From IMG/VR virus record IMGVR_UViG_3300029641_000003: a stretch of DNA of 64,000 bases; one strand, written 5' to 3'. The position numbers and the translations under genes were made by a program. Positions within the stretch are counted from its first letter, which is position 1, and each line of letters opens with the position of its first letter. The notes under the pieces are model-generated. The model made no database searches, was not told where the DNA came from, and worked only from the letters and a program-made list of their open reading frames with translations. Of the stretch, positions 1,660 to 57,196 are shown in pieces. The stretch is from a virus (Duplodnaviria > Heunggongvirae > Uroviricota > Caudoviricetes).

Positions 1660-3050
1660 TATCCCTCTATCGTTGATGATTGTTTTCAGCAAACAACCGC
1701 CTTTCCTCCGCGCCCAATGCGGGCTGGAAGGAAAGGCGGAAAAGCCCACAAGGCTTTAAAAAAATCATTACGGTGTTAGCATAAAAAACCTGTATCAATG
1801 AGCCGTGACTATGTTAAGAGCAACAAAAGTACGCATCTATCCAACCACTGAACAGGCTGAGTATCTCAATGCTCAGTTCGGTGCAGTGCGTTTTGCGTAC
1901 AACAAAGCTCTTCACATCAAAAAACACGCTTACCAGCGACACGGAGTGAATTTAAGTCCGCGTAAAGATTTAAAGCCGTTGTTGTCTGTGGCGAAGAAGT
2001 CCCGCAGATATGCCTGGCTTAAAGAATTTGATTCAATGGCATTGCAACAGGCGGTAATCAATCTTGATGTGGCGTTTTCCAACTTTTTTAATCCGAAGCT
2101 GAAAGCGCGGTTCCCGACGTTTAAACGTAAACATGGGAAGCAATCGAGCTACCATTGTGTCGGGATTAAAGTACTGGAGAATGCCATCAAAATTCCTAAG
2201 CTGGCACCGATAGAAGCGCGTATACACCGTGTAATGACGGGAAAAGTGACGAGCATAACAATCACTCGCAGTGCCACCGGGAAATACTACGCATCCATCC
2301 TTTGTGAAGACGGTATTCCCACACCAGCGAAACCTGCGTATCTGGAGGAAGAAAAGATTACTGGTGTGGATATGGGACTTGAGCACTATGCCATCACTTC
2401 TGATGCTGTAAAAGTTCCGAATCCTCGCCATCTCATCAATGCCAGCCGTAATCTGCGACGCAAACAAAAAACGCTATCCCGCAAACAAAAGGGAAGCGCG
2501 AACCGTAAAAAGGCCAGAATCCGTCTTGCGGCCTTACACGAACGGGTGGCGAATGCCCGTGCTGATTTTCAACACAAGCTCTCTCGTACAATTGTTGACG
2601 AAAACCAAGCGGTAATTGTGGAGACGCTGAAAACAGCCAACATGATGAAAAGCCACAATCTGGCAAGAGCGATAGGTGATGCTGGCTGGCACAGCTTCAT
2701 CACAAAGCTGGAGTACAAGGCAGCGACAAAAGGCGTTCACCTGGTAAAACTCGACCAGTGGTTTGCCAGTTCGAAAACGTGCCATTGTTGTGGTTACAAA
2801 ATGCCGGAAATGCCACTTCATAAACGCATCTGGCGATGCCCTGAGTGTGGAGCAGAGCACGACCGCGATATCAATGCGGCACTCAACATCCGGCAAAAAG
2901 GAATACTGGAACTAAAGGCGGCGGGACTCGTCGTCTCTGCCCATGGAGGCCAGCGTAAATCCGTCGCACAGACGGTTGCGGCCTGAGAAGTGGGAATCCT
3001 CGTCCGACCGGGCGGGGAGCAGTCACGAGCCTTGATCCCCCTTCCCTTCC
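1660..3050 (+). mobile_element. IS200/IS605-family insertion element carrying tnpB only (IS1341-like); ends approximate
   Basis: Subterminal hairpin CCGCCTTTCCT...AGGAAAGGCGG at 1696-1738 upstream of tnpB; no tnpA seen; structured sequence after tnpB stop. Confidence 0.5.
1805..2986 (+). CDS. tnpB: TnpB (IS200/IS605 OrfB, RuvC-like nuclease with C-terminal zinc finger)
   Basis: 393 aa; N-terminal RIYPTTEQAEYLNAQFGAVRFAYNKAL typical of OrfB_IS605; C-terminal CHCCGYKMP...CPECGAEHDRDINAALNI zinc ribbon. Confidence 0.85.
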   Translation: MTMLRATKVRIYPTTEQAEYLNAQFGAVRFAYNKALHIKKHAYQRHGVNLSPRKDLKPLLSVAKKSRRYAWLKEFDSMALQQAVINLDVAFSNFFNPKLKARFPTFKRKHGKQSSYHCVGIKVLENAIKIPKLAPIEARIHRVMTGKVTSITITRSATGKYYASILCEDGIPTPAKPAYLEEEKITGVDMGLEHYAITSDAVKVPNPRHLINASRNLRRKQKTLSRKQKGSANRKKARIRLAALHERVANARADFQHKLSRTIVDENQAVIVETLKTANMMKSHNLARAIGDAGWHSFITKLEYKAATKGVHLVKLDQWFASSKTCHCCGYKMPEMPLHKRIWRCPECGAEHDRDINAALNIRQKGILELKAAGLVVSAHGGQRKSVAQTVAA

Positions 3051-3322
3051 CAAATCTCCCTGTTTCTTTGGTTATTCAGTGCGTTTCTTTGGTTGCATTC
3101 ATCGATAGTGCTGAATAACTGTTCAGTGTATGCCGGATACTTGTTTAACAGCACAGGCGTGTCCTCTGGCACTATGCAAGGGGTATAATCAATCAGATTT
3201 CCCTGCGGTTTGCTGGTGGCTTCTACGGTAATTTGCATTGGCACGCTGATTGATTTCTTTTGCCCGTTCCCGCTGCATCCTGATAACGTCATCAGGCACA
3301 CGCACATCATTAACCCCGGCAT
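3023..3322 (-). CDS. o-spanin (Rz1-like lipoprotein) embedded out of frame in i-spanin gene
   Basis: Internal start gives MPGLMMCVCLMTLSGC with lipobox LSGC; lies inside 3189-3647 in another frame, the classic Rz/Rz1 arrangement. Confidence 0.55.
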   Translation of the reverse strand: MPGLMMCVCLMTLSGCSGNGQKKSISVPMQITVEATSKPQGNLIDYTPCIVPEDTPVLLNKYPAYTEQLFSTIDECNQRNALNNQRNREIWEGKGDQGS

Positions 3323-3647
3323 TGCGTAACGCAGTTTCAAGACGATTGATTTCATTCTGGCTTTCCTCCCGTTGTTTGATCAGGCTGGTATTCAGTTCTG
3401 CTGTTTTGCGCTGGTACTCCTTCTCCAGTGTTTTAATTCTTTCGTTTTCAGCCATCATGGCAGATCGCGATTTTTCACTTAACTGCAATGCGGTAGAAAG
3501 CGTGTTGTTCTCGCTTTCAAGTTGTGATTTTGAGTCTTCCAGGGAACGGATATACCTGATGTGATCGATAACTGCCGCCGTAGTACGGTAAATTCCATAA
3601 ATGGCTAAAAGCGCAACTACTATCAAAATTATCTTTTTCAAAACCAT
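3189..3647 (-). CDS. i-spanin (Rz-like): N-terminal transmembrane helix plus coiled coil
   Basis: Start taken at MVLKKIILIVVALLAIYGIY (TM helix) followed by charged coiled-coil region; overlaps o-spanin ORF. Confidence 0.55.
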   Translation of the reverse strand: MVLKKIILIVVALLAIYGIYRTTAAVIDHIRYIRSLEDSKSQLESENNTLSTALQLSEKSRSAMMAENERIKTLEKEYQRKTAELNTSLIKQREESQNEINRLETALRNAGVNDVRVPDDVIRMQRERAKEINQRANANYRRSHQQTAGKSD

Positions 3648-3718
3648 CCTCTTCAGATTTTTTTGTTGGTGTGATATGTGTACCAATTTGTAACCATTTA
3701 TGGGCTTAAATGGTGTGG

Positions 3719-4513
3719 TTATGGTTCCTTTTTAGTGTTGCTTTGGAGCGCATCGATTACACCTTGTGGCATGATCAAACTGATTGCGGGACTCATTACT
3801 TCATCGCCCAGTAGAGAACCGGTTAACGTAATAGCTACAGCATTCTCCAGTCCCTGTTTGGCTTTTCCGGTAGAGTCCTTAACTTGCTGTGCAAGTGTTG
3901 AGAGACTACTGCTCGTGTTGTTTATTGCATTTATTTGTTCTGTTGCTGCTTCCACAGCGTCTTTTAGTGCTTTGATCTCTTCTTCTGTTAGTGCTGGTTG
4001 CTGTGTTGTTCCGGTGGAACTTCCGTTGCCTGAAGCCTCCCCGCTTGACGCCTGAACTTTTGCATTTATAGCGGTCATGGCTGAAGTGATTGGCTCCAGT
4101 TCAAATGCTGCCAACGCGTCAATAAGCGATTGCGGATGCAGGGTATCTCCCATAACTGTTACGAGAGCAAATTCTGGCGCAGGAGATAACTCATTACCTT
4201 TGACGTAACATTCCCAGCCAATTTTCATCTGAAGTAATTCAGTTGGCGAAGCATACGGAGACAGCGAGTCGGCTAAATTGGTTGCTTCTGCACTGACAGT
4301 TTTCAGTTGTTCTGAAAAGACAGAAAGCTGATTGACCCATGAAACCACCGACGCCGGGTATGCTTTATCCTTCAGGATAAGAGCCTGGATATTCTCTTCC
4401 AGAGAACTGGCATTGGATGACGCTGTTTTACTTAGCGTGATAGATGCAGGCGTAGTTGTACCTGATGCATTTAGAATTTTGAATGCGTTAACTTCAGCGA
4501 TTGAATCAAGCAT
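3719..4513 (-). CDS. hypothetical Ala/Ser/Thr-rich protein (264 aa)
   Basis: Start overlaps stop of upstream PAAR gene (ATGA), so co-transcribed; no recognised motif. Confidence 0.45.
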   Translation of the reverse strand: MLDSIAEVNAFKILNASGTTTPASITLSKTASSNASSLEENIQALILKDKAYPASVVSWVNQLSVFSEQLKTVSAEATNLADSLSPYASPTELLQMKIGWECYVKGNELSPAPEFALVTVMGDTLHPQSLIDALAAFELEPITSAMTAINAKVQASSGEASGNGSSTGTTQQPALTEEEIKALKDAVEAATEQINAINNTSSSLSTLAQQVKDSTGKAKQGLENAVAITLTGSLLGDEVMSPAISLIMPQGVIDALQSNTKKEP

Positions 4514-20448: not shown

Positions 20449-21249
20449 ATTGGCAGCCTCCTTTGACTAAGTTAAGGAGCTACCGCGTGAGGTTCCAATC
20501 TCAATGGCGGTAGCACTGACTGGGTTGGAACTACCGGCGTCAAAGGGAACCGGCCTGCCTTTCGGCAGCCCAGCCAGCACTACCATTGATCTCTGAGCTA
20601 AACGCTACGTATGGCTGTGCGATGGCATGACACAAAAAAAGACGCTTTCGGCGTCTGTGTCGCCTTTGACATTATCCGGGGTTCCAATCCCGGCACCCGT
20701 TTTTCTAAGGTGCCGTAGAAATATACCCCACGATAATGCCAGGGCGCAACAGTCAGTATTTTATGCTTTGGCAGATTTCTTTCGGGCTTGCTTGCAGGCG
20801 TAGGCCATTGCTTTAGCTTTCACTTCATCCAGCTTTCCGGTGATCACTTCTTTTCCGAGAGTGACAAACCAGTCATAGCAACCGCCAGTGATGTTCTGGA
20901 TTTGAAAGTTGAGATAGCGAACGGTCATTTTGACACCCCCAGCGCGAGTAAAGAATGCAGATTATCGCGTGAGTGGCGGACAACGAGTGATGGGAAAAGA
21001 CAGTAGCTGTTCATAGTGTAGTGACTCCTTGCTTTCGGAGCCGCCATCGACTGTTCCACGGTCTGGTGGCGGCGCAATAAAGGTTGGAACACCGTGAGTC
21101 AACGGGGGCTTTTCAGCCACCTATATTGCACCGCCATTGGTATGGCGGCGGCAATCATACGAAAAACCAAACGGTTTGTCTCAAAAAGTTGACCGGTGTA
21201 CCAATCGGTTGTGAATGTACAACGGCGAATTTCACAATTCAACTTAAAA
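20449..21249 (-). other. structured untranslated leader between operator and icd-like gene; candidate c4-like antisense RNA region
   Basis: About 800 bp with no credible ORF, several hairpins (GCTACCGC...GCGGTAGC; CTGCC-TTTC-GGCAG) and an internal intrinsic terminator (GACGCCGAAAGCGTC plus T7) at 20630-20665. Confidence 0.3.
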
Positions 21250-41087: not shown

Positions 41088-41471
41088 CTACCAGCGGGAT
41101 AAACGAACAACATGCTTAACTTTTGCCTCCCACTTCCCTTTATGTTTGTTGATCACCGCCTGGGCCATCTTCAGACTGGCTTCAAAATCGGCTTTTCGAC
41201 CACTATTACCCACCAGCAACGCTCCGTCTATTTCAGGTAAGCATAAGTAATCCTGCTCGACGGTAAGCGGCATTGATGATGTAACCTGGCAGGCTTTCCA
41301 TCTGAAGCGTATGCGCACACTCCTGACTGACATCACGACATAACCTGATATTGTGCTCTTGTGTCCGGCGTCTGTGCGTGTAGCCTTGCATGATGTTATC
41401 TTGCAGGTGATAATGTCCCAACCAATGTGCATCGCATCCTCAATGCGTAATTTAGTAGCCTCGTACATCAA
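41088..41471 (-). CDS. hypothetical protein (127 aa)
   Basis: ATG ORF overlapping next gene by 4 nt. Confidence 0.4.
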   Translation of the reverse strand: MMYEATKLRIEDAMHIGWDIITCKITSCKATRTDAGHKSTISGYVVMSVRSVRIRFRWKACQVTSSMPLTVEQDYLCLPEIDGALLVGNSGRKADFEASLKMAQAVINKHKGKWEAKVKHVVRLSRW

Positions 41472-42043
41472 AAAACCTCCCAGTCAGTAGCGATAATATC
41501 AACACCAGTTGCAAACCAGTCTGTCTGTGCCTGTAAATCCCCATTCATCATTACCAGGCGAGGCATAACCATCACATCACAACCTTCAACAATATCGAAT
41601 GCCTCTTCCGGCAGGAATTCGACGAGCTTTTCTTTGCTGCCAACACTGCCACGGAGCATCGATATATAGCTCCCTTTAGGCCATGATGTTCGCCGGGCAT
41701 CAAGCCCCTTCATCATCCAGTAAAAGGCCGATGAGAACGGGATGTTCTTTTTGGCGATGAGCACGTTATTCGCTTCTGTGTACTTCAGGAACTTAATTAA
41801 CCTTACCATTGACTCGGATAACGCAATGTACGGCTCATGATTGATTGCTGACACGCTTACGCCGTGCAGTCCAACACTTACCACAGTCATATCACCGTTC
41901 TGTGCGGTTTCGATGTTGACGCCTTTACGAACTAACGCTGCATAAAGCTCCTCGCGCTTTTGCGTCCAGCATTCTCGTCGCCCTATAAAGTCACTCAAAA
42001 CGAGATCATCTTCTGAATACGCGTTATCGTTCGCCGTTAACAT
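41468..42043 (-). CDS. hypothetical protein (191 aa)
   Basis: ATG ORF; no recognised motif. Confidence 0.4.
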   Translation of the reverse strand: MLTANDNAYSEDDLVLSDFIGRRECWTQKREELYAALVRKGVNIETAQNGDMTVVSVGLHGVSVSAINHEPYIALSESMVRLIKFLKYTEANNVLIAKKNIPFSSAFYWMMKGLDARRTSWPKGSYISMLRGSVGSKEKLVEFLPEEAFDIVEGCDVMVMPRLVMMNGDLQAQTDWFATGVDIIATDWEVF

Positions 42044-42497
42044 AACGTCTCCTTTTTTACACGCGCGACTATCCCCCGGCTGAACCGGTAGTGACGTCGT
42101 AACTTCGTATTAATTAAGGGTTACAGCCTGAGCGGCTATATGATGAATTGAAAGGAGTTGTGGCGGTGGTGCCTCCACCTGCCAGGTTAGCCACGCCCGG
42201 CGACGACACTTATCAGAACGTAGTGAATGAAAATGGCTTCGTCACGAGCGCATAGCCGCAATTACCACAACGGAGAAGGCGCTCGTATTAATTAAACACC
42301 TTTTCCTGTTGTACGCCGTGCTATTCCGGCTGTCACACCGAATCGCCAGGATGGTGAGTCCCTGAGTCCGCTATCCCTCCAACGGTGACTTGCACATTCC
42401 GGCTACCTGGTGTGCCCATGCAGTGTTAGTAAGGCACCTAACAGCTACACCAGACCGCTAACGACGCATGTGCCATACGCCGTGTTACAACCAAATG

Positions 42498-42573
42498 TGG
42501 TGGCCCCTACCGGACTTGAACCGGTGACCGTGCGATTATGAGTCGCCCGCTCTAACCACTGAGCTAAAGGGCC
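42498..42573 (-). tRNA. tRNA-Ile (anticodon CAU, ileX-like)
   Basis: 76 nt GGCCCTTTAGCTCAGTGGTTAGAGCGGGCGACTCATAATCGC...GGTTCAAGTCCGGTAGGGGCCACCA; cloverleaf with CAU anticodon and encoded CCA; near-identical to E. coli ileX as recalled. Confidence 0.8.
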
Positions 42574-42710
42574 AGATTACTGTTAATTACGCTTACGCTT
42601 TTTGCCAGAACCGCGTAAGGCTTTTGCCGCTTGCTCTACCCCGTATGCAACCACCAGCAGAAACAATAATGTCCACTCCGGGTTTTTATCGGCAAACGCC
42701 CAAAAATTCA

Positions 42711-42944
42711 TCACTTACAGCCACCTTGCATTTCCTCGGATAATTCATTGACTTTAGTGCTCAATAAGTAATCAAAGTAAAGATAAAACACAAAAGTAAC
42801 GATAGTGCTTAAAGTGTCTGAAATTGCGTATTTCAGCTCAGGAAGCATGACAAAGCAGACAAATAGCGGAAGAAATAACTGCACTATGCACAGACTCTCC
42901 TTCCACAACCATCTATATCTGAAGTCTGACAACAAAAACTCCAT
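42711..42944 (-). CDS. small membrane protein (77 aa)
   Basis: Hydrophobic segments; stop overlaps start (TGATG) of a further 41-aa hydrophobic ORF at 42583-42711. Confidence 0.35.
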   Translation of the reverse strand: MEFLLSDFRYRWLWKESLCIVQLFLPLFVCFVMLPELKYAISDTLSTIVTFVFYLYFDYLLSTKVNELSEEMQGGCK

Positions 42945-43194
42945 TGCTTGAAACTTTATTAGATTGCGGTGCCTGGTGCCTCCAGGTGACGTTAACCAGT
43001 TAACAATTAACGCCGGGATGTTTGACTTAACTATTAAGGAAAATTGTTTTAACTGTTCCGCGTGCGCTTAGCCGCATTCACCGCAATGGTAAGAGCATTT
43101 GGCTGGCTGGGCGGCGATGACGCCTGTACGCATTTGGTGATCCGGTTCTGCTTCCGGCATTCGCTTAATTAGCCAAATACTCTTAACGTTGCGC

Positions 43195-43281
43195 TGGCGG
43201 AGAGTAATGGAATCGAACCATCATCGCTTGCGCAATGGGACGGTTTTCAAGACCGCTTGAGCACCATGCTCCCTACTCTCC
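43195..43281 (-). tRNA. tRNA-like gene, type II (long variable arm), possible tRNA-Ser(UGA)
   Basis: GGAGAGT/ACTCTCC 7-bp acceptor stem, discriminator G plus CCA, T-arm GATGG-TTCGATT-CCATT, anticodon loop CTTGAAA; D-arm atypical. Confidence 0.4.
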
Positions 43282-43529
43282 AGTGATTGTGGTGGTCGGT
43301 ACTGATCTCCGACTGCGCCTCTTTTTTTCATAGCCCATAAGGCCGGTCAGTGCGCTTGATGACTGAGGCATCGATATTTACTACGCCGCCTCGTTGCCAT
43401 AGGGCGGACTTGCGCGCCAGCAACGCGCATTCACCACAACGGAAAGAGCATTTATGGCTCGCATCGCGGGAAGCGGGAAAAAACCCACGGTAGAGAGTCG
43501 AACTCTACAAATGCTCTTACCTGTTGTGT

Positions 43530-43605
43530 TGGTGCCGGTTAACGGACTCGAACCGCTGACATCCTGCTTACAAGGCAGGCGCTCTACCAACTGAGCTAAA
43601 CCGGC
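43530..43605 (-). tRNA. tRNA-Thr (anticodon UGU)
   Basis: GCCGGTTTAGCTCAGTTGGTAGAGC...CTTGTAA...GGTTCGAGTCCGTTAACCGGCACCA canonical cloverleaf. Confidence 0.85.
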
Positions 43606-43607
43606 AT

Positions 43608-43682
43608 TGGCGATGGTGGATGGATTCGAACCACCGACCAGTTGGTTAACAGCCAACTGCTCTACCACTGAGCTACACCATC
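43608..43682 (-). tRNA. tRNA-Asn (anticodon GUU)
   Basis: GATGGTGTAGCTCAGTGGTAGAGC...CTGTTAA...GGTTCGAATCCATCCACCATCGCCA; 2 nt from tRNA-Thr. Confidence 0.85.
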
Positions 43683-44995
43683 ACTTGCCGGGTACGTCTC
43701 CGGCGAGGGCTTCCACCTCCGTATGCTTTTCGGCGCACCGCGCCCTGGCTGCAATTCGGTAACAGGGGATGCACAACCCTGGCTTCCAGCGTGATTAGCG
43801 CCTTCAGCATGACGGGATATACCCGTTACAAGACATTATTCCAGAAAGCCATTAACCAATGGCTGTTACGCGGAAAGGACGTAACAGGTAAGGGCGCTGA
43901 CCAGAAAGACCTGACCCTTCTCATTCATCTGGTTAATCACACCAGCGCCCTTGCCTGTTATGCCTCCCCGTTCCCTAATACACAGACGGGGACACTCTGC
44001 GGTCGATTTTTTGACGGGGGACGACTCATACCCCGTGGTGTCAGGCTTCTTAGGCCGCTACCATCATCAGATCATCGTTTGCATTTACTTTAATGGTCGG
44101 GTTCTAAACCGCCGCAAAGTCGCTAACCATGACGAAAACACTGAAAAAACACCCACCCGAAGGTGGGCAAATATCCCACTCGCGGTATTGCCACTTAGGC
44201 GTATGGTCAACCTGGCAACTCGGTGTCCTCAACGGGGAAGGAATAACCCCGCCATACTTACCGCCGCGCCTGTCGCGGTTATCGCTACGTATCAACATAA
44301 AAGCCGACTGCCTGAGCAAGATTCACTTTCAAAGGCCCGCAGAAAGGAATCCATAGTCGGCTTTTATCTTGAAGCGGCTCTCTCTCCGCCCGTCACCGCT
44401 CTGTCTCGGTTGTCACGTTTGCCACGCCAGCCGTAACGAGGTTTAAAGTCTTTGCACGTTTCCATCACTCGACTGCCGTCTGTGGCTGTTCGTTGCAGCG
44501 GGGGTGCCTCCCCCTGGGGATATCCCCGGCCTTACCCCATTCTTTCAAGACACAATGCAAGGCCACATCCGCATAGGTGCATTACCGCAACGTTAAGGAG
44601 ACTCAGAGTCAGCAAAATAAGAGGAAAACCCAACTCTGCGCCTCCTTAACGTTGAGGATGTGCACTGATGATGACCCGATGCAGCCTGGCCCACTTAACA
44701 TACTCACTGCCAGATCATCATCAATGAACACCATAAAAAGACCTTCCGTGGCTCAAGTCACTGTCGTTTACTCCGTAAAATGCTCTCGCTGAAACCACTT
44801 TACGCACTAAACCTGCCGGGCATGTATTTGCACGGTGCCGGAGCTTTCCCTTACCTTAAAATTTACTTTCTAACACTTAAATTTGTTTGATGCTGGTGGG
44901 GAAAGACAATGAAGTGACTATCAAACCCGCAAGCGACATGGGAAGCTCCCCACCAGCACGAAAAATTCTATGTTAAGTTAACCCCATAATCAATA

Positions 44996-45027
44996 TGTTA
45001 GAAAAACAATTTTAATTTTCTAACATA
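44996..45027. promoter_or_regulatory. operator: inverted pair ATGTTAGAAAA(N10)TTTTCTAACAT
   Basis: 11-bp perfect inverted repeat; another half-site TTTCTAACAC at 44867-44876. Confidence 0.5.
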
Positions 45028-46236
45028 TTATTTCCCGTAAAGATTTTCAACTCCACCGTTCTTCTTATCCCACTCGTTCGCCCATACCCGGCAAGCATCA
45101 ATTATTTCCTGACGGCGATCGCCCTGCATGAACGGAATGCTTTCATGAAAGCTGCTTGGAATGCAGGCCACACTGAACACTGTATCAAACTCAGTCTGCT
45201 TGATTGCCTCCAACGTCTCTGGACGCATTTTCAATTCGTCGATCGGTGCATCCTTAGAGTCCATAATCCGGCGATGCAAGCGTGGAAAATCCGTTTCAAG
45301 GTACGCCATAATTTTATCTGCCAGGCATTCGTCTATGTCGGTATTCCAGTCAGTTTCGAAGCCAGGAATTCGGTAGTAAAGCGGCGTTCCCCATACTGAC
45401 GGGATCACATCCATCGTCAGCAGGCGGCTGGTTCTGATTTGCTGATGGTAATTTGCCGTCAGCAACGCTTCGCCACGTTGCCCAGTCTCCGCGACCAGAC
45501 CATGCGGAAACTCATGGATATAGGCAATAGCTTCTCTTCCGTCATACATTAGCGGGAATGTCTCTGGCCTTTGCCCCATGCCACAGGCGCGATTCAGATC
45601 ATGACCAAGCTCTGAGCACTCTCGTTTCAATGTTTCAATAATGCTCTGCGCCGCTGCTAACTTTTTACGCAGTGTGACGAGTTCGCCTTGATACTCAACG
45701 CATTGCTGATTTAGCTTGGTTAAACGCTCTTTTAGTTCCCGACGCTCTCTTTTCAGCGTGCGGTTATCTTTCTCCGCAACATCCAGTCGTTTTGTCAGGC
45801 TTGGCGGATAGTCTTTTTTGTAACGACTCAAATCGACTTCAGCAGATTTGCGCAGTGTATTTGCCTGCTCAAGACGCGCCTCCAGATTGCCGATCTCATT
45901 ACGCATATTCGCGGCAAATTGATTAACTGCATCCCCCAGGCTTTCAACTGTCGCTGATACACCAGTGACTTGAGAAAAACGGATCAAGCCATCATTAACG
46001 GCTTGCTGATATTCCTCAAACTGATCCACCAGCTTATTGTAATCAACTGCCCCATCATCAAGGAGCTGGTTGATTTCCGCCACCAGGTTATCTGTAGTGG
46101 CAATGACGCTCTCATGCAGTCGCTTTGACAGGTCATCGCCCGGATTTCGTTTCTGTATAAGCGCGATTTGTGTCCGCAGCGTTTCAATTGCGGTTGAGAT
46201 GATCTCCAGGCTTGATGATTCTACTTGCTGACTCAT
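45028..46236 (-). CDS. hypothetical protein, N-terminal coiled coil plus C-terminal globular domain (402 aa)
   Basis: Single gene bracketed by operator sites and an intrinsic terminator upstream. Confidence 0.5.
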   Translation of the reverse strand: MSQQVESSSLEIISTAIETLRTQIALIQKRNPGDDLSKRLHESVIATTDNLVAEINQLLDDGAVDYNKLVDQFEEYQQAVNDGLIRFSQVTGVSATVESLGDAVNQFAANMRNEIGNLEARLEQANTLRKSAEVDLSRYKKDYPPSLTKRLDVAEKDNRTLKRERRELKERLTKLNQQCVEYQGELVTLRKKLAAAQSIIETLKRECSELGHDLNRACGMGQRPETFPLMYDGREAIAYIHEFPHGLVAETGQRGEALLTANYHQQIRTSRLLTMDVIPSVWGTPLYYRIPGFETDWNTDIDECLADKIMAYLETDFPRLHRRIMDSKDAPIDELKMRPETLEAIKQTEFDTVFSVACIPSSFHESIPFMQGDRRQEIIDACRVWANEWDKKNGGVENLYGK

Positions 46237-56867: not shown

Positions 56868-57196
56868 AGTTACGGCCTCGTAAGTTGATAAACAACCTGC
56901 GACCCGCTGTCAAACAGGTGGCAGGACGTGACAGGGTTGACAGACTGGCACTTACGAAACCAGCAGGCCGAAGCCTCCCCATCACGCCCCACCATAATTC
57001 GGGCGTAACGTGGTTTTACGGACACAAAAATACCGCAATATCGGAAATGTGCGGTTGTCCGCGTAAGTATTCAGGCTGTCAAACCTGGTCGCAGAATTTG
57101 CTACGACGGCATGAATATAAGCCTGAACATTAGAAAGATCAACAGAATTTTTATCAAATGCTGTTTTTTAGTGACAATGTAAATCATACATTCTTG
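56868..57196 (-). other. structured untranslated leader, copy 2 (candidate c4-like RNA region)
   Basis: No ORF; hairpin CCGCA...TGCGG followed by U-run ending TTTTTGTGTC, the same tail as in copy 1. Confidence 0.3.

Follow-up and report, generated by a model that had tools for sequence, protein, structure and literature searches.

The DNA considered here, 64,000 nucleotides of the IMG/VR virus record IMGVR_UViG_3300029641_000003 (Caudoviricetes; this whole stretch is called the window), carries at 42044–43682 an array of four transfer RNA (tRNA) genes among copies of a repeated element, both of which had been pointed out in an earlier note made from the letters alone. The results described below reveal that the repeats are arms of long, covarying hairpins, which are joined to structured bodies and recur in other phages, and that the fourth tRNA gene specifies a serine tRNA of unusual shape. 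All four tRNA genes lie on the minus strand according to ARAGORN (Table 1). At the Rfam gathering thresholds only the three canonical ones are reported, namely tRNA-Asn(GUU), tRNA-Thr(UGU) and tRNA-Ile2(CAU), which the earlier note had taken for the complement of phage P1; the P1 record indeed lists trnA, trnT and trnI only. The closest match of the region 41900–43800 is phage D6, which covers 70% of it at 92% identity; P7 and then P1 follow, and hundreds of non-mobilisable plasmids of about 90 kb from Escherichia coli, Salmonella and Klebsiella match as well. This order of similarity, together with the plasmid matches, places the window in the P1 family of plasmid prophages, as a member of the D6/P7 type.

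The counterpart of this region in P1 is found between Pban, a promoter under C1 control, and the ban gene (P1 record NC_005856) and contains, according to the record, a 'dicF-like region', trnA, trnT, plp/upl, tciA-C and trnI. By position, the stretch from about 44990 down to 42044 on the minus strand would be a long leader, nearly all of it untranslated, of an operon whose P1 equivalent is the C1-repressed ban operon, and we infer that this leader, of about 3 kb, is a polycistronic array of non-coding RNAs borne on one transcript. The approximately 1.3 kb upstream of tRNA-Asn (43683–44965, minus strand) has no convincing open reading frame (ORF) and holds hairpins D and E and body E; the Rfam DicF model finds no match in this interval.

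Table 1. Features of the putative leader and its surroundings, listed along the minus strand (arm 1 and arm 2, 5' and 3' arms of a hairpin; MFE, minimum free energy of the predicted fold; z, its z-score).
Feature	Position	Strand	Description
Candidate sigma-70-like promoter	44965–44993	−	TTGATT-17-TAGAAT; consensus scan only; head of the leader; position like that of P1 Pban (P1 annotation of Pban and Op72)
Hairpin E	44588–44654	−	Arm 1 44633–44654, arm 2 44588–44609; MFE −36.5 kcal/mol, z = −7.8; far upstream in the leader
Body E, STnc100-like paralogue	44492–44591	−	Closing helix GUUGCGGU/GCUGCAAC; 3' hairpin GGGGG-AGGCA-CCCCC at 44500–44514; no Rfam match at E ≤ 5
Strong terminator-like hairpin	44150–44169	−	Roughly at the position of the P1-annotated 'dicF-like region'
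Hairpin D	43882–43960	−	Arm 1 43943–43960, arm 2 43882–43899; MFE −38.4 kcal/mol, z = −5.8; upstream of tRNA-Asn
tRNA-Asn(GUU)	43608–43682	−	ARAGORN; RF00005, 75.5 bits
tRNA-Thr(UGU)	43530–43605	−	ARAGORN; RF00005, 74.9 bits
Hairpin C	43432–43529	−	Arm 1 43509–43529, arm 2 43432–43453 (repeat at 43431 in the earlier note); MFE −40.8 kcal/mol, z = −6.2; starts 1 nt past the CCA of tRNA-Thr
Body C	43286–43440	−	Closed by GUUGUGGUG (43432–43440) and CACCACAAU (43286–43294); ends 4 nt before tRNA-Ser
tRNA-Ser(UGA)	43195–43281	−	87 nt, CCA encoded, non-canonical; ARAGORN; RF01852, 44.6 bits; cloverleaf covariation; annotated in D6 and RefSeq
Hairpin A	43079–43196	−	Arm 1 43171–43194, arm 2 43082–43104 (repeat at 43084 in the earlier note); MFE −44.6 kcal/mol, z = −4.0; directly past the CCA of tRNA-Ser
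Body A, STnc100-like	42911–43106	−	Closing helix AUUGCGGUG (43079–43087)/CACCGCAAU (42963–42971); 3' hairpin CCUGG-AGGCA-CCAGG at 42972–42986
Variable cargo slot	42583–42944	−	Small ORFs of 77 aa (42711–42944) and 43 aa (42583–42714); no match in family search
tRNA-Ile2(CAU)	42498–42573	−	ARAGORN label Met(cat); P1 homologue annotated trnI; Rfam match
Hairpin B	42265–42314	−	Arm 1 42295–42314, arm 2 42265–42284 (repeat at 42262 in the earlier note); MFE −20.3 kcal/mol, z = −4.2; downstream of tRNA-Ile2
Body B, STnc100-like paralogue	42157–42271	−	Closing helix GUUGUGGU/GCCACAAC; 3' hairpin GGUGG-AGGCA-CCACC at 42165–42179
191-aa gene, C-terminal Tad2-like (Thoeris anti-defence 2-like) domain	41468–42043	−	PF11195, 40.2 bits (cut-off 25); phrog_7362; counterpart of D6 orf6

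The repeated element is present at the three places where it had been noticed and is conserved in relatives. The degenerate 22-mer AAATGCTCTTWCCRTTGYGGTG is matched exactly at 43079–43100(−) and 43432–43453(−) and, in inverted orientation with three mismatches, at 43175–43196(+), making three matches against 0.01 expected; the copy near 42262 is diverged, 42245–42273 being 79% identical to 43061–43089. Counted from the 3' ends of tRNA-Thr, tRNA-Ser and tRNA-Ile, the elements begin after 77, 91 and about 213 nt, respectively. Since every repeat has an inverted partner, these sequences form long imperfect hairpins of which the repeat is the 3' arm. Five such hairpins with stems of 18–26 bp, all in the sense of the tRNAs (minus strand), lie between 42265 and 44654; the inverted partners and the two upstream copies (43882–43960 and 44588–44654) had been overlooked. 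Because the five hairpins punctuate the 3-kb leader, two of them far upstream of any tRNA, and because only 15 of 60 sampled loci in IMG/VR hold a tRNA, the description as a simple tRNA-flanking repeat does not stand; the elements are the 3' arms of covarying hairpins, joined to the 5' box of the bodies described below.

The helices are supported by an alignment of the arms of 11 hairpins (C, A and B of the window, and those of P1/D6, P7, Ro157c2YLVW, CMS-2020a, Cyrano, two Klebsiella plasmids and lambda), in which 96.5% of the cells pair and 10 of the 18 pairs show compensatory changes; none of 500 shuffles reaches the observed level of pairing, and slid controls do not exceed 59%. Among the arm cells, 18 are G·U and only 3 are A·C, an excess from which it follows that the helix is selected as RNA of the tRNA-sense strand. 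Arm 1 begins 1–2 nt after the CCA of both tRNA-Thr and tRNA-Ser. The loops, on the other hand, vary in length (9 nt in B, 55 nt in C and 65 nt in A) as well as in content. That of hairpin A is a 65-nt element (43105–43170), 98.5% identical to lambda 44866–44930, and that of hairpin C contains a T-arm-like hairpin, GUAGAG-UUCGACU-CUCUAC, at 43490–43508(−); the loop of the post-Thr hairpin of P1/D6 holds a perfect T-arm (AGGG-UUCGAAU-CCCU). The tRNA 3'-half-like fragment of the earlier note is thus present as a T-arm-like hairpin, but a repeat search found no resident tRNA 3' half of which it would be a copy, and since it sits in a variable loop, it is to be taken as loop content and not as a conserved feature. 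For the same reasons, namely that it duplicates no resident tRNA 3' end and that loop content differs among relatives, a remnant of an integrase att site was rejected. The 9-nt loop of hairpin B contains one copy of the 13-bp direct repeat TCGTATTAATTAA; both copies noted earlier (42105 and 42283) exist, but the repeat is probably due to chance, because D6 holds one copy only and two matches also arise in 2 of 100 shuffles. As a separate observation, the plp ORF of P1 (excerpt positions 2850–3227, opposite strand) overlaps trnT and the conserved post-Thr hairpin (3177–3273), which casts some doubt on the plp annotation in P1.

The last 8–9 nt of each 3' arm (GUUGYGGUG) can alternatively pair with a downstream CACCRCAAC box and so close a structured body. 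The window thus holds five paralogous modules, each made up of a long imperfect hairpin and the helix-closed body behind it. Common to bodies A, B and E are a 5' box UUGCGGURAUKGC, the closing helix, and a 3' hairpin with an AGGCA loop. The closing helix covaries (C-G to U-A, G-C to C-G), and so does the stem of the 3' hairpin (CCUGG/CCAGG, GGUGG/CCACC, GGGGG/CCCCC, CCGGG/CCCGG), its loop being invariant. Also compared were the copies of P1, P7 and D6 and one of STnc100 type from Shigella phage 75/02 Stx, which itself scores 32.9 bits and stays under the cut-off; for the 3' boxes of bodies B and E, where the MAFFT alignment is unreliable, the helices were judged by explicit pairing. Body A scores 43.7 bits with the Rfam model of STnc100 (RF02076; cut-off 47; E = 1.2e-7), and the P7, D6 and P1 copies score 43.0, 39.6 and 33.4 bits, respectively. 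By their shared architecture the three bodies are STnc100/PasD-like, none of them reaching the gathering score of RF02076. STnc100 is a prophage small RNA (sRNA) reported to be structurally related to the Hfq-dependent PasD, for which targets have been identified by RNA interaction by ligation and sequencing (RIL-seq), and both occur in lambdoid late regions near Q, stx and lysis genes, one STnc100 copy lying 75 nt downstream of stx2 (bioRxiv 10.64898/2026.05.13.724894, PMC12370729). At E ≤ 10 no other Rfam family was found over the region, and no ribozyme, DicF or Y-RNA; matches to YrlA and tmRNA are weak, overlap the tRNAs, and were discarded.

Hairpins and bodies are not confined to the P1 family. 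In lambda, a hairpin and a body directly follow tR' in the late leader (lambda 44787–44930), the 65-nt lambda body being the sequence shared with the loop of hairpin A. In rV5-like phages, a tRNA-Ser is followed by the 65-nt element, closed there by a different helix, and tRNA-Ser and element together are about 83% identical to those of the window. Klebsiella phage e270.2 has a hairpin, a body and then tRNA-Ser(GCU), the same order as hairpin C, body C and tRNA-Ser in the window; Deseoctovirus C1 and Salmonella phage ST1UNAM carry one or two modules in an intergenic gap among tail genes; and modules are also found in SSU5-like plasmids and in siphoviruses. A scan of IMG/VR for the exact motif returned at least 120 contigs. 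A tRNA was present in 15 of the first 60 loci, in 14 of them within 500 nt on the same strand, and 7 of the hairpins adjoin tRNA-Thr directly. Release of tRNA 3' ends therefore cannot be the general role of the hairpins, and the distribution indicates that modules and tRNAs share non-coding slots, the modules not being appendages of tRNAs. Module boundaries coincide with breakpoints between phage families: P1-type genomes part from the window exactly at arm 1 of hairpin B, and in Cyrano tRNA-Thr is joined directly to tRNA-Ser through ACACAAUU, which is the ACACAA box of arm 1 fused to the end of body C, as would be expected of the remnant of a deletion between that box and the CCACAAU end of body C. 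A body of ST1UNAM (excerpt positions about 1560–1720) holds a tRNA-like fragment with a D-arm and a T-arm (GCGCGUAACUCAAUCGGUAGCGC ... GCAGGUUCGAUUCCUGU) and without an anticodon arm; decayed tRNAs seem to litter these modules.

Alternatively, the inverted repeats might matter mainly as DNA, being relics or boundaries of small mobile or recombining cassettes (MITE-like elements, MITE standing for miniature inverted-repeat transposable element, or 'linkers' through which modules are exchanged) that have no function as RNA. The mosaic breakpoints at module boundaries, the unrelated inserts in the loops, some with tRNA-like debris, and the number of IMG/VR contigs with the arm motif all speak for this explanation. 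However, copies within one genome have diverged and nevertheless still pair, with compensatory changes that would be unexpected of recently transposed repeats, and the imbalance of G·U over A·C fits only RNA of one strand; in addition, no target-site duplications were seen, the 13-bp direct repeat is not kept as such in D6, and no transposase is linked. We consider a function at the DNA level alone to be improbable. An origin as a MITE or as a repeat derived from an insertion sequence was rejected on account of the compensated divergence and the lack of target duplications. Integron attC-like sites were likewise set aside, the arm ends ACACAAC/GTTGTGG not fitting RYYYAAC/GTTRRRY when compared by eye, as was a C1 operator, the repeat agreeing by eye with the operator consensus ATTGCTCTAATAAATTT at only 9 of 17 positions.

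From the anatomy, covariation, strand bias and distribution of the hairpins, a mechanism may be proposed in which a single transcript would begin at the promoter-like site 44965–44993, placed like the C1-controlled Pban, and the long stems would serve as processing or insulating sites specific for double-stranded RNA (dsRNA), most plausibly for RNase III. Cuts would fall beside the CCA ends of the tRNAs and at the 5' ends of the sRNA-like bodies, and once the hairpin has been cut, the GUUGYGG box at its 3' end may find a new partner in the downstream CACCRCAAC box, thereby closing the freed body. The boxes, whose sequences are conserved, may for this reason double as joints for homologous recombination, by which cassettes of tRNA, sRNA and cargo genes would be traded among P1-like, SSU5-like, lambdoid and rV5-like phages. 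The reading as processing stems is suggested by the stem length, by the start 1–2 nt past two tRNA CCA ends, and by the overlap of the stems with the 5' strand of the closing helix of the next body. RNase III processes DicF from the dicB operon of the Qin prophage, cleaves species 1 RNA in the T4 tRNA cluster, and acts on the processing stems of ribosomal RNA (rRNA). Its stems are about two turns of mostly Watson-Crick dsRNA with conserved structure, and this is what the hairpins present (18–26 bp, z from −4.0 to −7.8, 10 of 18 pairs compensatory), with conserved internal irregularities in the stems. To the overall reading, in which the array is a C1-controlled untranslated early leader whose stems are both RNA processing or insulating sites and recombination joints, we give an even chance of being right; the assignment to RNase III in particular is somewhat less probable than that.

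Several observations weigh against this interpretation. Folding of the window sequences by themselves gives about equal results for the two strands, hairpins D and A being slightly better on the plus strand; plasmid pAR-0407-3 has the tRNA-Ser without a following hairpin; and two thirds of the hairpins sampled elsewhere stand without a tRNA in the vicinity. The Rfam STnc100 model finds no match for body B (E ≤ 10) or body E (E ≤ 5). Body A lacks the terminator of the family; to this part of the model it aligns poorly, over a stretch that overlaps the ATG of the 77-aa ORF. The role proposed for RNase III, finally, is drawn purely from stem length and covariation.

Two further explanations may be set beside it. 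In one, the hairpins would not be cleavage sites; each would stabilise the 5' end of a trans-acting sRNA of the STnc100/PasD type that depends on Hfq, is transcribed independently and happens to share a slot with tRNAs, an explanation suggested by the RIL-seq targets of PasD and by the location of this family near Q, stx and lysis genes (bioRxiv 10.64898/2026.05.13.724894, PMC12370729), as well as by the many hairpin copies elsewhere that have no tRNA nearby. In the window, however, a promoter scan found none before the modules, bodies A and B continue without terminators into ORFs, and the position of arm 1 at 1–2 nt from the tRNA CCA fits co-transcription, so that independent transcription appears unlikely. 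In the other, the modules would be elongation devices that shield 3 kb of untranslated RNA from Rho, either through boxA-like sites for NusB/NusE (UGCUCUUU/UGCUCUUA) and a boxC-like GUUGUGG or by leaving no unstructured RNA for Rho to bind. The leader is indeed almost without translation over about 3 kb, an exact boxA core lies within arm 2 in the lambda hairpin as well as in hairpins C and A, and in rRNA operons boxA and boxC adjoin an RNase III processing stem. But the motif YGCTCTTW, with 15 occurrences in the window against 9.1 expected, is not specific; boxA is kept in only two of the five hairpins, the others having changed together with compensating changes in the partner arm; and a stable helix encloses the motif, although NusB/NusE bind boxA in single-stranded form. 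Nus antitermination through UGCUCUUU, which is neither enriched nor conserved across copies and is base-paired, was accordingly rejected as the explanation of the repeat, and we retain it only as an alternative of low probability.

The fourth tRNA gene had been described as an extra type II tRNA-like sequence reading UGA (Ser) with an atypical D-arm, and this description holds; ARAGORN calls tRNA-Ser(UGA) in the window and in eight relatives. Across nine homologues, 97% of the cells of the cloverleaf pair, compared with at most 63% in slid controls, and six pairs show double-sided changes, of which the acceptor stem has three, the V stem two and the D stem one. Such conservation identifies the gene as a real, conserved tRNA. 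Invariant in all intact homologues are G1-C72, G2-C71, A3-U70, G73, the anticodon loop CUUGAAA, the T-loop and the encoded CCA, and the acceptor nucleotides and G73 are the same as in E. coli serT. The identity set of E. coli seryl-tRNA synthetase, comprising the long variable arm, G73, G1-C72, G2-C71 and A3-U70, is thus fully present in the phage tRNA. In spite of this, its best Rfam match is to tRNA-Sec (RF01852), at a score under the cut-off of 47, in keeping with the atypical D-arm of the earlier note, and it lies below the gathering score of RF00005; tRNA-Sec is always the best model for homologues across lineages (41.5–46.6 bits), whereas E. coli serT, taken as a control, scores 57.5 bits with the general tRNA model. 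An actual tRNA-Sec is marked by a UCA anticodon and a 13-bp (8/5) acceptor branch; this identity is ruled out by the score, the UGA anticodon, and an acceptor branch of 12 bp (T stem of 4–5 bp).

The shape of this tRNA departs from the usual one in several respects. Position 8 is A instead of U, the D-loop has 3–5 nt and includes GG, the D stem has four covarying pairs with a fifth in some homologues, and the T-loop is UUCGAUU. A pair between A8 and U65 is possible in every intact homologue and would give an 8-bp acceptor stem and a 4-bp T stem, and the computed fold energy of this 8/4 cloverleaf (−33.3 kcal/mol) is lower than that of the 7/5 form (−29.9). Two points count against the 8/4 assignment: A8, U65 and G49 never vary across homologues, so that covariation cannot choose between 8/4 and 7/5, and the anticodon stem, A25·C43 being unable to pair, stops at 5 bp and is shorter than the stem described for allo-tRNAs. 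The molecule is probably, though not provably, a functional non-canonical tRNA-Ser of the Sec-like (8/4) tRNA-Ser or allo-tRNA shape. In 52 ORFs of the window, AUA, ACA and UCA are used 2.8, 2.1 and 1.8 times as often as in E. coli K-12, and it is exactly these three that Ile2(CAU), Thr(UGU) and Ser(UGA) read. The match between over-used codons and phage tRNAs supports a decoding function, and tRNA-Ser(UGA) would supplement the decoding of UCA. That it is instead a pseudogene or a decoy or regulatory RNA, such as bait for a host tRNA-targeting nuclease, is very unlikely: the sub-threshold score with the general model, the remark in the D6 record that tRNAscan-SE called no amino acid, a degenerate copy in plasmid pSa1423-90k and the continuation of the operon into a Tad2-like gene could be read in that sense, but compensatory changes keep every arm, no variation is seen between the P1-like, SSU5-like and rV5-like lineages in the Ser identity nucleotides, CCA, T-loop or anticodon loop, the phage over-uses UCA, and those 8/4 tRNAs that have been tested are reported to be active in E. 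coli translation (PMC5389517).

The gene is not new, although its odd shape has been under-appreciated; it cannot be called a discovery, because D6 and D6-like plasmids carry the annotation already and the Prokaryotic Genome Annotation Pipeline (PGAP) assigns it too. The D6 record labels it tRNA-Ser, 'AA not called by tRNAscan-SE', a paper on a D6-like Salmonella plasmid names Asn, Thr, Ser and Met tRNAs (PMC6799933), and RefSeq annotates the tRNA-Ser in 331 of 5,426 complete E. coli genomes (6%), with 334 of the 336 places on plasmids. An identical gene is present in phage-plasmid CMS-2020a and in P7 (NC_050152.1, at about 72257–72343 of the record), where the record annotates Ile, Thr and Asn only. 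The genes of D6 and Cyrano differ from that of the window by one base, those of SSU5-like plasmids of roughly 110 kb in Klebsiella and Salmonella are about 85–87% identical, and rV5-like virulent phages have a 91-nt version. The tRNA sets of relatives are combinatorial, with Asn-Thr, Asn-Tyr-Thr, Arg-Thr or Arg-Tyr-Thr, then Ser present or absent, and then Ile. Some irregularities were encountered in these sets. The D6 record (NC_050154.1) places three tRNA features on the strand opposite to that given by ARAGORN and Rfam (excerpt positions 3160–3865) and omits the tRNA-Met/Ile2(cat) called by ARAGORN (2099–2174). In the Salmonella Concord plasmid pAR-0407-3, the tRNA-Thr after tRNA-Asn is apparently split in the anticodon region by an insertion of about 100 nt (excerpt positions about 1560–1662), flanked by normal 5' and 3' tRNA halves, which could be an intron or a disruption. 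The rV5-like phage phita32 has, in its tRNA cluster, a 99-nt tRNA-like gene (excerpt positions 1885–1983) between the 65-nt element and tRNA-Thr, with a 4-nt 'anticodon' in the ARAGORN output and 35.5 bits with the Rfam tRNA model.

As to the surroundings of the array, the slot before tRNA-Ile holds two small ORFs in the window and tciA/tciB, an SPFH protein or a type I toxin in relatives. The first sizeable protein gene past the RNA array is the 191-aa gene with the Tad2-like domain, at the place where P1 has ban, which suggests that the early operon bears counter-defence cargo. Upstream, a near-perfect 18-bp inverted repeat (AAUAUGUUAGAAAA...UUUUCUAACAUAUU; 44956–45037, minus strand) at the end of a 402-aa ORF (45028–46236) overlaps the promoter-like sites and could be a terminator or an operator. 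Elsewhere in the window, two matches to C4 antisense RNA (77.1 and 69.6 bits), one to isrK (62.7 bits) and one to the c4 a1/b1 target element (55.2 bits) attain the Rfam gathering scores. The immI-type RNAs fall into two separate sets (20503–20590 and 20635–20713; 56914–56999 and 57068–57120; all on the minus strand), so that two immunity loci of the C4 type are present in the window.

Few phages have been studied as well as P1, P7 and lambda, but the tRNA-Ser of P7 is unannotated and the hairpin modules are apparently undescribed; no description of the hairpins of the P1 ban leader or of the modules after lambda tR' was found in the searchable literature. If the stems are processing sites, they would offer a route to several tRNAs and STnc100/PasD-type sRNAs from one transcript, provide a functional handle on STnc100, whose role is unclear according to the literature, and explain the combinatorial tRNA sets of phage-plasmids of the P1-like and SSU5-like kinds, frequent inhabitants of clinical Enterobacteriaceae. 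For its part, the tRNA-Ser would be an easily tractable natural 8/4-type tRNA working in E. coli. A bolder extension, to which we attach little probability, is that the units of hairpin and body constitute an undescribed, horizontally mobile family of RNA cassettes, whose conserved box/anti-box helices would be RNase III-type release sites, setting free tRNAs and several STnc100/PasD-like regulatory RNAs out of one early transcript under repressor control. The boxes would also let unrelated phages, Deseoctovirus-like ones included, trade the cassettes, and in an anti-host early operon that ends in a Tad2-like gene the Sec-shaped 8/4 tRNA-Ser would be kept because its odd body escapes a host tRNA-targeting defence or a modification requirement.

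The array is worth comparing with known systems. Mukai et al. 2017 described allo-tRNAs and (8/4) tRNA-Ser in bacteriophages and proteobacteria, which they came upon as near-misses of this kind and found to be active in E. coli (PMC5389517); no mention of enterobacterial phages was found in the main text of that paper. The tRNA-Ser of the window shares with this class the near-miss with the tRNA-Sec covariance model, the long variable arm, G73, a compact D-arm, a serine anticodon, a position 8 other than U that can give an 8-bp acceptor and a 4-bp T stem, and the residence on phage or proteobacterial replicons; it differs in having a D stem of 4 (perhaps 5) bp with a loop of 3–5 nt, the class having a long stem and a tetraloop (PMC5389517). 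The array of P1 (trnA-trnT ... trnI, NC_005856) agrees with that of the window in operon position, order and orientation, the Asn, Thr and Ile2 genes being orthologous, and the post-Thr hairpin occurs in P1 as well, together with a single STnc100-like body. What sets the window, D6 and P7 apart from P1 is the extra tRNA-Ser and two more modules; the cargo between Ser and Ile is different, and the operon ends in a Tad2-like gene instead of ban. STnc100 (RF02076) and PasD have the same 5' box, closing helix and 3' AGGCA-loop hairpin as the bodies of the window and occupy comparable non-coding slots of temperate phages, beside tRNAs, stx or Q, whereas the bodies of the window are tandem paralogues in what would be one transcript, without terminators of their own and with a long hairpin in front that lies outside the Rfam model. 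In the T4 tRNA cluster, with its stable RNA species 1 and 2, and in the case of DicF, structured RNAs are likewise co-transcribed and are freed by endonucleases; the modules of the window, known from sequence alone, bear no sequence relationship to them. In the rRNA operon, too, long helices bracket functional RNAs within a long untranslated transcript, and a UGCUCUUU-like motif and a GU-rich box lie beside the stem; in the window, the boxA-like motif is inside the helix and is neither conserved across copies nor enriched. Overall, the tRNA itself adds little that is new, and it is the hairpin modules that merit further attention.

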